DNA of 64,000 nucleotides. Source: Myxococcales bacterium. GTDB lineage: Bacteria > Myxococcota_A > Polyangia > Polyangiales > DASUME01. Below, piece by piece: positions 31,030 to 37,716 of the stretch. The DNA lies in the NCBI GenBank assembly GCA_047601445.1, contig JASGJH010000001.1, positions 3,968,001-4,032,000 on the forward strand, read 5' to 3'. Both the position numbers and the translations under genes were made by a program. A model generated the notes under the pieces. The model was given only the letters and a program-made list of their open reading frames with translations, searched no databases and was not told the origin of the DNA. Position 1 is the first letter of the stretch. Each line of letters begins with the position of its first letter.

Positions 31030-31287
31030 GTTCCTTCCTCCTGTGTTCGACACAGGAAGCGATAGCGCCGCGCCGTGGGAGGCAGGGAGTAACAACCAAG
31101 GCGCGATTGACCGAGCCCGCCGCACGGCCGACTGGGCGAGAGCAGGTAGGAGCGCGTGGGCGTCGCACCTGAAACGTCACCGTTGCGCTACCGCGCAGCG
31201 TGGGCTGCCCATGCGTGGACGCACGCTGCCTTGCACATCCCCATGGACGTCGGGTGATTGCCGCGTGATAGCATTTCACCGTCGTCC

Positions 31288-32124
31288 ATGGTTCCACGCT
31301 TGCGCCTGCCATCTCTCCGGTACGCCGCGCTGGCGGTCGTGTGGTCCAGCCTGCAAACTGGCTGCTTCCTGATCGGCTACGAGAGCCTCGGGGACGAGCC
31401 CAAGAGTCGCGAAGACTTCGCTCCTGACGGGCCCGACGCCGCGGACGGCACCGACGCAGCCCATGCCCACGAGGACGGCGGCTGGAAGGACTTCGACGCA
31501 GGGCTCGTGTTCGATGCCGGTCTGCCCGACGGCGGGTCCACGAATCCCTCGCTGGACGCGGGCTCGGATCTCGACGCGGGCTCGAACCTCGACGCCGCAA
31601 CGGACGCGGCCGCTGACCCCGACGACGCAGGCGGCGGCAGTCACAACGACGGCAGCGTGCCTCCCACCGACGGCGGCAGCACCTGGGTCCCCCCGGACGC
31701 CGGCGAATGGTGGAAGGGTCTCACGCCCACATTGGCCTGCACCAACCCCTACTCGTGCAACCAGGCCTGCACCTCGGCCACGTCGCCGTGCTCCTTCAAC
31801 TGCGGCTCCGTGTCCTGCGTGCCCAGCTGCCAGGCCAACACCAAGTGCGTCACGAACTGCACCGCGGGTTCCAGCTGCGTCACGGGCTGCGCCGCCGGCG
31901 CCACCTGCCTCAACGAGTGCCACTCGTTTACCTGCACCAGCACCTGCCAGGCGGGCTCCTACTGCGAGCTGGACTGCATGGACTCCACCCAGTGCACCCT
32001 GACCTGCGCCAAGGGCGCCCACTGCTTGGCCAAGTGCGATGGCCCGAGCTGCGAGTTGCCCTGCGAAGGCGCGCTGATGTCTTGCCCGGGCAACATCACC
32101 ACCTGCGACCGCGCGTGCCCGTAA
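31288..32124 (+). CDS. Lipoprotein with acidic DAG linker and periodic Cys-rich C-terminal domain
   Basis: Lipobox LQTGC; DAG repeats; CxxxC units every ~9-10 aa. Confidence 0.75.
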   Translation: MVPRLRLPSLRYAALAVVWSSLQTGCFLIGYESLGDEPKSREDFAPDGPDAADGTDAAHAHEDGGWKDFDAGLVFDAGLPDGGSTNPSLDAGSDLDAGSNLDAATDAAADPDDAGGGSHNDGSVPPTDGGSTWVPPDAGEWWKGLTPTLACTNPYSCNQACTSATSPCSFNCGSVSCVPSCQANTKCVTNCTAGSSCVTGCAAGATCLNECHSFTCTSTCQAGSYCELDCMDSTQCTLTCAKGAHCLAKCDGPSCELPCEGALMSCPGNITTCDRACP

Positions 32125-32207: not shown

Positions 32208-33449
32208 TCAGTCGAGCGCGCGTACCGTGCCGGCCTGCGACAACCACTCGCTGACTCGCTGAGCTGGGATCGTCGACCCGAAATCGAAGTCCCCGCCCCC
32301 GAGGCGACGGATGGCGATCTGGCGTGAGGCCGCGTCGAAGATCACCAGGAAGGTGGCCGCTTCCAGGACAGGGCGCTCAAACGTCACGTCGCCTCCGCCC
32401 GTGATGTCCTGGAACGAATAGAGTGTGGTGGTGGCCTCGAGTGAGGTGGTGACGCCGCCGAGGATCTCGGCCACGTCGAGCTCGCCGCAGCCGCCCTTGT
32501 ACACGGGATCCGAGCCAGCCCCGCGGCAGTTGCACCCGTATTGCGAGCTGCGCAGCACCTGCGACGGCAAGATCCAGTACGCGGGTGTCTTGCTCCCGAT
32601 GGGCATCCTGAACTTGGTGGCGAAGATCTTGCTGCCCTGGCTATCGCCCTGAAACCCGTGCAGCGGCAGCCCCGAACTCCATCCACAATCGCTCGCCGCG
32701 TCCGAGCCCGAACACGCCTTACTCGACATCACGTGCACTTCCGTGCCCGCAGCGATGGATCCCGAGAACAACACGGGCTGCGCGGTCTCCTTGGTGCCAT
32801 CGGCGGTCACGTAGCTCTGCACGAAGCCGCCACACTCGTACCAGGACTTGTTGCCCGTGAACGCGAGCCCCGAGCTCTGGCAGCGATCCCAGTAGGCCGT
32901 ACGCTTCCAACTCGCGCTGTCCGGCGCATAGACCGCTACCTGGTAGAGCTCCACGGGTCCCGCGAACACCAGGCTCATTTCCTCGTTGAAGGGCGCGAGC
33001 GGTCCCTCCACGTGCTTGGGCTTGCGGTACGTATTCCTGCAAAGGCTGCCGTCCTTGTCGCCCACGCACCCGGTGGCCTTCGACCAACCCGTGACCACTT
33101 GCGCGTAGTCGCCGGCGGCGCCCACGTTGGTGTAGGTGAGCGCGGCCACGGCCTTTTTGCCCGTATTCGCCACGAACTTGTCCACGCCGAGTGGCCGGCT
33201 GCCCTGTTCACTCGCCTCGCACACCGGAAGCGCCGGGTCATCGCGGCCCGCGTCGTGCGCGACCGAATCAACGCCGCCAGCATCGTGCGCGCCCGGGTCC
33301 TGCATGCTCTCGGCGTCCGAAGCCGGATCGGACGGAGTGCCCGTGTCGTGACCTGCACCGACCCCCGCTTCGCCAGGCGACGCGGAGGGATCTCCCTGGC
33401 AGCCCACGAGCAAGGCGAACAGTGGCAGCACGACTCGTCGCGACGTCAT
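32208..33449 (-). CDS. Lipoprotein resembling fungal TOS1/YJL171C (DUF2403+DUF2401) putative beta-glucanase
   Basis: Lipobox LLVGC; YTNVG..Y, GPLAPFNEEMSLVFAGP..LYQVAVY, KIFATKFRMP, PAYWIL..RSSQYG.CNC, GCGELDVAE. Confidence 0.72.
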   Translation of the reverse strand: MTSRRVVLPLFALLVGCQGDPSASPGEAGVGAGHDTGTPSDPASDAESMQDPGAHDAGGVDSVAHDAGRDDPALPVCEASEQGSRPLGVDKFVANTGKKAVAALTYTNVGAAGDYAQVVTGWSKATGCVGDKDGSLCRNTYRKPKHVEGPLAPFNEEMSLVFAGPVELYQVAVYAPDSASWKRTAYWDRCQSSGLAFTGNKSWYECGGFVQSYVTADGTKETAQPVLFSGSIAAGTEVHVMSSKACSGSDAASDCGWSSGLPLHGFQGDSQGSKIFATKFRMPIGSKTPAYWILPSQVLRSSQYGCNCRGAGSDPVYKGGCGELDVAEILGGVTTSLEATTTLYSFQDITGGGDVTFERPVLEAATFLVIFDAASRQIAIRRLGGGDFDFGSTIPAQRVSEWLSQAGTVRALD

Positions 33450-33492: not shown

Positions 33493-35268
33493 TCAGCGCG
33501 GCCCCACTTCACCGGCCTGGATGCGCTGGAACAGCACCTGGTCGATTCGCACGTAGGTCTCACCGTCGAGGAAGAACAGGGGATCACTGACCTTGTTGGG
33601 GTCGAAGCCCTCGTCGCGATAGCCGAGCTTCTGATGCTTGAAGGTGCCCGTGATACGCATCTCCTGCTGCAGGCGCAGGAAGTACGGGCGCTGGTAGGCC
33701 GGCAGACGATCGACCACGTAGCGAGCGAACTCCCCGAGGTCGAGCTCCGGGTTCGCATTGATGCTGGCCATGCCGGCGCGGCCCTCGCTGCCAGGCACCG
33801 CCACGCCGTACACGTTGCTCTCGAGCACACCCTTGGCGCCGTTCAGCACCTCGGCCACCTCGTTGGTGGACACGTTCTCGCCCTTCCAGCGGAAGGTGTC
33901 GCCCACGCGGTCCGCGAAGGACACCCAGCCGTCCGCGTGACGCTCCAGCAGGTCGCCCGTGTTGAAGTAGGCGTCTCCCTGGCGGAACACGTTGCGCATG
34001 ACCTTCTTCTCGCTGGCGCTCCGATCCACGTAGCCGTCGAAGGCGATCAGCGGGCTGATGCGGCCGAGCAGAATGCCCTTCTGCCCCACGTCAACCTGTT
34101 CGCAGAAGCCCTGTGCGTTGCGGAACACCTCACCGCTCGCCTCGTCGCAGCGCGCCAGCACCTGCCCTGGATTCAGCCGCCCCAGCAGCCCCGGACGCCC
34201 CTCGAAGTTCACGATGGGCGCGTTGCTCTCAGTGGCCATGTAGAACTCGCGGAACAGGGGCATGTTGAAGCGACGCTGGAAGGCCTCCCAAACGTCCGTT
34301 CGCAAGCCGTTGCCCACCGCCACGCGCAAGCGGTGGCTGCGCTCGCGCGGATGCTTGGGCGCGTTGAGCAAGTAGCGACACAGCTCGCCGATGTACACGA
34401 AGATCGACGCGTCGTAGTTGTACACGTCCTCCCAGAACTGCGAGGCCGAGAAGCGGCGCCGCAGAGCGATGGCTGCACCGCTGCCCAGCGCCGAGCCGAA
34501 GCCGATGATGAACGCATTGGCGTGGTACAGCGGCAGCGTCACGTAGATCACGTCACGGGAGGTCGCTTCCATGCACGACGCGCCATAGAGATAGGCGCCG
34601 GACATGAAGCGCTTGTTGGTGACGATGGCAGCCTTGGGCAAGCCCGTGGTGCCGGACGTGTAGATGTAACACATCACATCCGAGGTATTCGGCAGCGTGA
34701 TGCGCGGAGGCCGCGCCCCGGACTGCTGCGCGACGGCCTCGTTGATGCGCTCGAAGTCGTGGGCAGGTTCCGCGCCCTTGTCGACCTGCATCCAAAGCCG
34801 GCCCTGCTGCGCGGCCAACGCGGAGCGCACGTCTTGCATCGCCTCCGCGTGCTCGGAACCGAACAGCACGGCCTTGGCCTTGCACACCGTGATCGCGTGC
34901 GTGAGCGCGATGCCCGAAGCATTCGTGTTGATCAGCGAGGCCACCGCGCACAGACGATTGAGCCCGAGCGCCGCGAACAGAAACTCCGGTCGGTTGTCCA
35001 TGAAGAGGGCGACAACGTCCTTGGAACCGATGCCTCTGCTCTGAAAGAAGCGCGCATACTGGTTCACGCGCAGGTCCAGATCGCGCCAGGTGTAGCGCTC
35101 GTCCAGGTACGCGAGCGCGAGGCCGTTGGGGTTCTCCGCCACGCGCTCGTCCAACAGGCGCGACGCGCTCCAGGGGCGGTTCGAGACGAAGCGAGGCAGA
35201 CGCCTGCCCGTGCGTGAAAGGGACCACAGCTCGAATGCCGTCGACTTGGCTTGCTCTAGCCTGCTCAT
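33493..35268 (-). CDS. Long-chain acyl-CoA synthetase, FATP/very-long-chain family
   Basis: YIYTSGTTGLPKAA, YIGELCRYL, DRVGDTFRWKGENVST, GRAGMA. Confidence 0.93.
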   Translation of the reverse strand: MSRLEQAKSTAFELWSLSRTGRRLPRFVSNRPWSASRLLDERVAENPNGLALAYLDERYTWRDLDLRVNQYARFFQSRGIGSKDVVALFMDNRPEFLFAALGLNRLCAVASLINTNASGIALTHAITVCKAKAVLFGSEHAEAMQDVRSALAAQQGRLWMQVDKGAEPAHDFERINEAVAQQSGARPPRITLPNTSDVMCYIYTSGTTGLPKAAIVTNKRFMSGAYLYGASCMEATSRDVIYVTLPLYHANAFIIGFGSALGSGAAIALRRRFSASQFWEDVYNYDASIFVYIGELCRYLLNAPKHPRERSHRLRVAVGNGLRTDVWEAFQRRFNMPLFREFYMATESNAPIVNFEGRPGLLGRLNPGQVLARCDEASGEVFRNAQGFCEQVDVGQKGILLGRISPLIAFDGYVDRSASEKKVMRNVFRQGDAYFNTGDLLERHADGWVSFADRVGDTFRWKGENVSTNEVAEVLNGAKGVLESNVYGVAVPGSEGRAGMASINANPELDLGEFARYVVDRLPAYQRPYFLRLQQEMRITGTFKHQKLGYRDEGFDPNKVSDPLFFLDGETYVRIDQVLFQRIQAGEVGPR

Positions 35269-36411: not shown

Positions 36412-37716
36412 GTGGCTGCTCTCCGGCACTGGTGTTTGATCGCGACCGTAGGCAGCGCGGGCGGTCTCCTCGGCTGCATCGACACGGTGAGCCTCGGCAG
36501 CGAGTGTCTGCCCTTGATGCCTGGCTGCACGCGCGACGAACAGCCGGGAGAAGTTTTCGACGCCGGCCCTGGTCAGCCTCGCACCGACGCGGGCATGCCG
36601 CCGCAACAGGACGCGGGCTGGCCGTGCATCGCGCCGAGCCTCGGTGGTTCGGACTGTTCCTGCGTGGCGCAGTTGCCCGCCCCGAACGCGCAGTTTTCGT
36701 TCGATGAGAACGCGGGGCTGATGGTCCATGACACGGTGGGCGACGGCCCCTCGGCGAGCCTGGAGAATTTCGTGATGTCCCCGTGGGGCGCGGGACGCCT
36801 GGCGAGCGCCCTGGTGCTCGATGGCATGGACGATGGCGTGGAAGTCGGGAGCCTGTCACGACCCGCGCGCACGCTCGCGATGTGGATCAAACCCACGAGC
36901 ACCTATGTGGTCACCACCGAGTCCTCGGTCCTCATGGCCAGTGACCACGGCCCCATCGACGACTGGACCAATCCCGAGAAGGCCTACGCCGACGACGACG
37001 ACTCGGCCTGGGCGGCCGGTTTGTTGAACGTGTCCCGCCAGCAGCACTGGGGCGGCTTTCATCTGGATCGCGAGGTGCCCGCGGGCGCGCAAATCGTGGG
37101 CATCGACGTGTTCGTCGACACCGCCAGCTTAGGCCTCTTGGGATACTTCAGCGTGGAGCTGTCCTGGGACGGCGGCCTCTCTCACACCGATGCGAAGTAC
37201 GGCTGGGCGCAGCTGGTGGCAGGGTCGGGCCCCCAGCACGCCGGCGGCGTCGACAAGCTGTGGGGCCGCAACTGGAGCTCCTCCGAGCTCAGCGACACGA
37301 ACTTCCGTGTGCGCGCGTCCTTCGGCGGCATCGTCAACACCATGTTCGTCGACTACCTCGCGGTGCAGGTCCACTACGCACCCTTCCCAGAACCGCGAGA
37401 GATCTTGGGGCTCGCCAATCCCGCTCGGCTCACCTTCGCCAACCAGGGCCTAGCGCAGGTCAGCACGCACGAGCTGCCCGGCGCCACGGCCTTCGTGAAC
37501 GGTGTGGCAGGCGGCACCCTGACGCGGGACTGGAACCACGTGGCGCTGGTCTCGGCGGAGCCTCTGCCGACGGAAAGACTGCAGCTCGGGCACGAGAGCG
37601 AAGCGCGCACGGGGTTCGCCTTCCAGGGCAGCCTCGACGAAGCGGTCCTGTTCGAAGACGCGCTGGCGCCGGCGCAGATCGAGGCCTTGGCGCGGGCTCC
37701 GGAGTGCCTGCCCTGA
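36412..37716 (+). CDS. LamG-like jellyroll lipoprotein with inserted domain
   Basis: Lipobox LLGC; FSFDENAG, ALVLDG, TLAMWIKP ... WNHVALV, FQGSLDEAVLF. Confidence 0.7.
   Translation: MAALRHWCLIATVGSAGGLLGCIDTVSLGSECLPLMPGCTRDEQPGEVFDAGPGQPRTDAGMPPQQDAGWPCIAPSLGGSDCSCVAQLPAPNAQFSFDENAGLMVHDTVGDGPSASLENFVMSPWGAGRLASALVLDGMDDGVEVGSLSRPARTLAMWIKPTSTYVVTTESSVLMASDHGPIDDWTNPEKAYADDDDSAWAAGLLNVSRQQHWGGFHLDREVPAGAQIVGIDVFVDTASLGLLGYFSVELSWDGGLSHTDAKYGWAQLVAGSGPQHAGGVDKLWGRNWSSSELSDTNFRVRASFGGIVNTMFVDYLAVQVHYAPFPEPREILGLANPARLTFANQGLAQVSTHELPGATAFVNGVAGGTLTRDWNHVALVSAEPLPTERLQLGHESEARTGFAFQGSLDEAVLFEDALAPAQIEALARAPECLP

Follow-up and report, generated by a model that had tools for sequence, protein, structure and literature searches.

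The window analysed here, a stretch of 64,000 nucleotides from contig JASGJH010000001.1 of a Myxococcales bacterium, contains a gene for a 413-amino-acid (aa) protein of the Tos1/YJL171C family. Judged by its sequence, it is a genuine lipoprotein variant, in a bacterium, of a family that is known but biochemically unproven. With a probability of about 0.55, the protein is a lipid-anchored extracytoplasmic retaining hydrolase acting on the beta-1,3-glucan of eukaryotic walls. Here hydrolysis, substrate, location at the outer surface and ecological use are what we infer; the lipobox alone tells no membrane leaflet. The features of the gene are as follows.

32208..33449, minus strand: 413-aa Tos1/YJL171C-family lipoprotein gene (P0001), open reading frame (ORF) and Pfam
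33399..33449, minus strand: N-terminus resembling signal peptide II, residues 1–17, with the lipobox LVG/Cys17 at 33399–33410, by sequence inspection
33222..33398, minus strand: low-complexity Asp/Ala/Gly/Pro linker, residues 18–76, poorly conserved among relatives, from the sequence
32922..33143, minus strand: PF10290 YJL171C_Tos1_N (old DUF2403), residues 103–176, Pfam E 6e-14, 52.7 bits
32244..32912, minus strand: PF10287 YJL171C_Tos1_C (old DUF2401), residues 180–402, GH16-like jelly-roll core, Pfam E 2e-35, 122.9 bits
32568..32585, minus strand: PAYWIL, residues 289–294, aligned with PA(F/I)W of GH16 laminarinases (W292)
32466..32483, minus strand: ELDVAE, that is, ExDxxE (E323/D325/E328), aligned to GEXDI(L/M)E of GH16

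Gene, domains and fold

The preliminary description, made from the sequence alone, had proposed a DUF2403 plus DUF2401 lipoprotein with a DAG linker and suggested a Pfam search as a check. The search bears this out: PF10290 and, C-terminal to it, PF10287 (profile positions 2–228 of 228) both far exceed the gathering cut-off of 27 bits, and the active-site motif stands in the CGExDxxE context of the family. All motifs quoted there are present, namely GPLAPFNEEMSLVFAGPVELYQVAVY (residues 149–174), KIFATKFRMP (274–283), PAYWIL, RSSQYGCNC (300–308) and GCGELDVAE (320–328), and ELDVAE lies exactly where it had been placed as the ExDxxE motif of GH16. From established GH16 knowledge, we take E323 to be the nucleophile and E328 the acid/base. 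The motif is intact in 120/120 relatives among the matches listed, and the columns E245/D247/E250 are nearly invariant in the Tos1-family alignment A1. In total, 237 relatives were found at E<=0.001 (8000 candidates scored), while NCBIfam yielded no model match.

The ORF runs from ATG at 33449 to the stop at 32208 (413 codons). We accept this start, since the basic N-terminus is followed by a hydrophobic stretch and then by LVG|C17; a longer ORF starting with GTG at 33830 was rejected, as it overlaps the acyl-CoA ligase gene upstream. The lipobox was called by inspection rather than by a dedicated signal predictor, and a lipobox-like Cys is seen in 69/88 full-length-like relatives (among the 120 matches listed, by our own heuristic). 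The sequence thus predicts extracytoplasmic targeting, with a bacterial signal replacing the eukaryotic one. The linker holds two DAG words.

Profile and fold searches lead to the GH16 laminarinases, probably in a circularly permuted arrangement, with the jelly-roll fold and the ExDxxE catalytic strand. Canonical GH16 (PF00722) gives no match at E<=1 in the 413-aa protein, which is GH16-like, not canonical GH16. Residues 99–335 of the model align to the N-terminal parts of GH16 structures (5jvv, 3–230/297; 3dgt, 5–223/278; 3azx, 7–208/252), and such sequential alignments leave unpaired both the C-terminus of GH16 and the part covered by PF10290. With 1ajo, an engineered permutant, the alignment begins at model residue 12, and the Tos1_N profile compared with the GH16 C-terminus is in register, but not significantly so (E 0.15). 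Hence the model supports the fold and would fit a circular permutation, the PF10290 part probably being the permuted segment. The top fold match, 5jvv, is a GH16 beta-1,3-glucosyltransferase, and porphyranases, carrageenases and O-glycanases are close behind; Z differences below 1 were treated as ties.

Myxobacterial relatives and glucanase partners

The family is patchy in the Polyangiales. A strong match occurs in 8/401 genomes (host G000 counted) and a weak one in 21; within the host genus, the gene is present in only 1/9 other genomes. The weak matches make up a second group, clade B, whose motif is GCG(Q/E)xNxFE (of 21 loci, 17 have Q and 4 have E; Q in 118/120 among the matches listed, two being outside the pattern). 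The clade B profile revealed 15 more carriers in 46 GH128-positive genomes and none in 31 not listed as GH128-positive. Altogether, Tos1-like genes of the two clades are found in at least 44/401 genomes (29 plus 15 later). In a phylum-wide sample, the family profile matched 2/401 genomes, a lower bound, as few candidates were scored per genome. Where close relatives are named, the records read Polyangiaceae, Polyangiales or Myxococcales, and NCBI assigns the proteins of loci from the same order to Polyangiales; we therefore take the host to be a Polyangiales myxobacterium, a bacterium of the soil-predator type. Cystobacter fuscus and Melittangium boletus also have relatives of the ExDxxE type. 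Among the records listed, all 16 bacterial names below the class level are myxobacterial, four more records being labelled only Pseudomonadota or Deltaproteobacteria; hence the bacterial range is patchy, not broad. The preliminary description had held that broad bacterial distribution would remove the novelty: the range does exceed one genome, extending over two myxobacterial clades, but it is not broad.

In clade B (L018–L038, L061–L074; P0274–P0393) the nucleophile is mostly Gln and the Asp always Asn, and the genes lie mostly in GH128/GH64/thaumatin lipoprotein clusters; these proteins, found in cultured genera, are candidate pseudo-enzymes or glucan binders. NCBI labels them "DUF2403 domain-containing lipoprotein" in Sandaracinus, Nannocystis, Archangium and Myxococcus.

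Clade B stands beside glucanase genes in 11/14 loci by profiles built partly from those very loci, and nine of them are confirmed by Pfam matches to GH128, GH64 or thaumatin; in 9/15 extra carriers a GH128 is adjacent by its coordinates. GH128 (E<1e-30) is present in 25/29 Tos1-positive Polyangiales genomes vs 48/372 others, a count in which the 48 include the unpublished G649 and G732, the 15 later carriers are missed and kin are non-independent. Among the other ExDxxE relatives, L007 and 10/48 high-GC metagenome loci (several near-duplicates, many short) adjoin GH64 or GH128. Fusions of Tos1 with GH128 occur in two brown algae (P0148, Discosporangium; P0166, Nemacystus) and in L113:7-2919, in both domain orders, P0148 also carrying WSC domains and L113 a PAN domain. 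The oomycete protein OPEL is a fusion of Tos1 with a GH64/thaumatin domain, according to the available part of PMC7219551. A family link to beta-1,3-glucanases is thus supported.

The host genome holds scattered genes for GH128 (C1, 5.116 Mb), GH16 (8.436 Mb), thaumatin-like (0.827 Mb) and GH19 chitinase (1.176 Mb, E 2e-83) proteins, each with a lipoprotein-like start; GH64 and GH30, also searched for in this genome, were not found. A fusion of GH18, polysaccharide deacetylase and GT2 (L042:895-3642; G000 C1, about 0.58 Mb) probably serves polysaccharide synthesis rather than being a secreted chitinase.

In the window, the neighbours are acyl-CoA ligase, TetR, SDR and DUF899 genes, a Cys-rich lipoprotein-like ORF and a LamG-like ORF. 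The same strand carries, 44 bp upstream, the long-chain acyl-CoA ligase-like gene (PF00501, 33493–36108), which is accompanied by a divergent TetR gene; this arrangement is unseen beside homologues. The convergent Cys-rich ORF (31258–32124, plus strand) has repeated CxxxC units and no Pfam match; a Cys-rich ORF is found near the homologue in L012/L059 too. The ORF at 36412–37716 (plus strand), also lipoprotein-like, has a weak Laminin_G_3 (concanavalin-like) match (E 0.0017), under the cut-off.

Adjoining clade B genes is a lipoprotein of about 460 aa (L066:7706-9097, L068:5402-6808, L071:7729-9084, also L061 and L067). It shows weak similarity to Pfam SUN (GH132) in 3/3 proteins scanned (E 0.04–0.17) and no usable match in the Atlas; it may represent a second myxobacterial glucanase family of the yeast-wall type. 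The cluster L071:6365-11271 combines two clade B paralogues (QxN and ExN), two GH128 matches and a SUN-like gene.

Weighing the function

In the favoured reading, the protein would be a circularly permuted GH16 jelly roll, stabilised by disulfides and tethered by the flexible linker to its lipid anchor, that cuts beta-1,3-glucan by retaining double displacement, with E323 as the nucleophile and E328 as the acid/base. It would be one piece of a scattered kit of GH128, GH16, thaumatin-like and GH19 lipoproteins digesting the glucan/chitin walls of living or dead fungi, oomycetes or algae. Use against fungal or oomycete walls would be plausible. The activity on beta-1,3-glucan, also proposed in the preliminary description, has indirect evidence in its favour (matches to GH16 laminarinase profiles, beta-1,3-glucanase neighbours of the relatives, eukaryotic fusions with GH128 or GH64/thaumatin), whereas two published laminarin assays were negative. 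The main evidence against it is experimental: OPEL was without detectable laminarin or beta-1,3-glucan activity, as stated in the available part of PMC4915311, which also reports that its ExDxxE is required for elicitor activity, and truncated cell-free I06 failed to clear laminarin (PMC7219551, likewise available in part). The profiles of GH128, GH64, thaumatin, SUN-like, GH18 and GH16 match nothing in the window, nor do they match in the 10 closest-group loci checked.

The negative assays, together with the ExDxxE dependence, would be explained if the protein, with the same active site and substrate, acted for the most part as a transglycosylase or remodeller, as do Crh and 5jvv, a GH16 enzyme that elongates, since plate or reducing-sugar assays would then show little. 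The top rank of 5jvv agrees with this, as does the discussion of fungal Tos1 as a protein of wall construction or remodelling (PMC4664879, in the part available). However, that rank is a tie, the genes beside the relatives encode members of hydrolase families, and wall building is of less evident use to a predator; we consider this alternative unlikely, but serious. A retaining hydrolase acting on another glycan (branched beta-1,3/1,6 or mixed-linkage glucan, the chitin-glucan junction, the bacterium's own exopolysaccharide or spore coat) is a doubtful option. It agrees with the many substrates within GH16 and the nearness of porphyranases, carrageenases and O-glycanases in the fold ranking, with the two relatives negative on laminarin in the sources available in part, and with the lack of informative neighbours at this copy. 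On the other hand, all the family context found (GH64, GH128, thaumatin-like, the WSC-carrying GH128 fusion) concerns beta-1,3-glucan, and the patchy distribution speaks against a core role in the self-envelope.

Clade B has mostly lost the nucleophile (QxNxFE in 118/120 of the matches listed), yet remains in glucanase clusters, so the fold may serve beyond classical GH16 catalysis. For the 413-aa protein itself, the role of a non-catalytic glucan-binding or sensing lipoprotein is improbable, as ExDxxE is kept in all 120 listed matches of its clade, which fits selection on catalysis. Finally, the eukaryotic identity of the nearest named non-myxobacterial relatives (37–42% identity) might suggest eukaryotic contamination or a mis-assembled piece. 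This is refuted: the gene, intron-free and with one copy in the genome, lies on a single contig of 9.5 Mb (66% GC) among bacterial neighbours, it has a lipobox, and there are many copies on myxobacterial contigs. Its codon GC is close to that of the neighbouring gene (GC3 0.84 vs 0.88), hence there is no sign of contamination or of very recent arrival.

Eukaryotic relatives and comparison with known systems

The nearest named non-myxobacterial relatives (35–42% identity) come from Chlorokybus, Globisporangium, Pythium, Bryopsis, Ostreobium, Protostelium, basidiomycetes and brown algae, with ascomycetes next. The Tos1 domains were described as present "only in Ascomycota" for a set of human-pathogenic fungi (PMC5872309, available in part); given the relatives in algae, oomycetes, Protostelium and basidiomycetes, the family is wider. 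In three unrooted trees (129, 57 and 62 rows), clade B is split from all other rows with full support. The backbone, on which the ExDxxE bacterial rows fall among eukaryotes other than ascomycetes, is nearly star-shaped. This phylogeny upholds the earlier proposal of an inter-kingdom family. Holding the bacterial rows together is not rejected (p-AU 0.574 with LG+G4, 0.374 with PMSF). Thus the gene family is common to myxobacteria and eukaryotes, and the unrooted trees would allow transfer in either direction.

Only in the PMSF tree do the homologues of the Bryopsidales green algae (P0132, P0134) group with the bacterial ExDxxE rows (support 90, unstarred); the other two trees do not show this grouping. 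The Protostelium nocturnum transcript (P0139) groups with the basidiomycete proteins P0133, P0143, P0150 and P0453 (support 99–100%), by transfer or contamination from food yeast.

It is possible, though hardly probable, that the permuted-GH16 Tos1 family arose in myxobacteria, its two deepest branches being the ExDxxE clade and the Q/ExNxxE clade as a glucan-binding or differently acting partner, and that eukaryotes (fungi, oomycetes, algae, amoebae) took the catalytic form from a myxobacterium. If so, a predator's wall-attacking enzyme became the eukaryotes' own wall-remodelling protein.

Of the proteins that Candida albicans secretes, Tos1 is one of the most abundant, making up about 9–12% of the secretome (PMC4664879, available part). 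The cleavage of beta-1,3-glucan by Tos1, a cell-wall protein known from fungi and water moulds, is a long-standing prediction dating from 2010, and the assays of two oomycete relatives were negative. The compact bacterial form with an intact active site, cultured relatives and a natural sister clade without the nucleophile make substrate and mechanism directly testable. Our literature searches, which covered little of the subscription literature and not the primary paper on Archangium AcGlu13, found no paper on bacterial Tos1 proteins; those found on Tos1 domains concern fungi or oomycetes. The databases already label bacterial members automatically (in UniRef, the C. fuscus DSM 2262 protein is glucan endo-1,3-beta-D-glucosidase), and the surprise of the single gene is moderate.

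The known myxobacterial predation glucanases GluM, IamC/LamC, AcGluA (GH55) and AcGlu13.1–13.3 (PMC10800785, PMC10971235, PMC11936981) are beta-glucanases, either secreted or bound to the membrane, that myxobacteria use on the walls of fungi or oomycetes. In the available parts of these sources none is described as Tos1-like, a comparison by description only, with the families of AcGlu13.1–13.3 unchecked. With the 413-aa protein, the myxobacterial glucan-degrading kit gains a family overlooked by canonical GH16 (PF00722) searches. The myxobacterial "DUF2403 domain-containing lipoprotein" records have the same architecture as the 413-aa protein; those of Cystobacter fuscus and Melittangium boletus fall with it into one broad ExDxxE group, whereas the clade B proteins differ in having Q/ExNxxE.

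Fungal Tos1, YJL171C (Toh1) and Pga52 have both domains in the same order and share CGExDxxE, PAxW, QYxxCxC and the final RP motif, at about 30–40% identity. However, they are secreted, GPI- or alkali-linked, the ascomycete matches contain a long inter-domain insert absent here, and the trees place the ascomycetes in a clade of their own. OPEL, I06 and the basidiomycete, Chlorokybus, Bryopsidales, brown-algal and Protostelium proteins share the compact two-domain core with ExDxxE, but carry a signal peptide and in many cases further domains (GH64/thaumatin, PAN, ricin, GH128, WSC), whereas the 413-aa protein has only the lipid anchor and linker. Finally, the canonical GH16 laminarinases (ZgLamA, 4bq1/4bow; Streptomyces, 3dgt; Thermotoga, 3azx) and the transglucosylase 5jvv have in common with it the jelly roll, PA(F/I)W and ExDxxE, while the 413-aa protein is probably permuted in order, lacks a PF00722 match, shows a structural identity of only 11–17% and has several Cys pairs.
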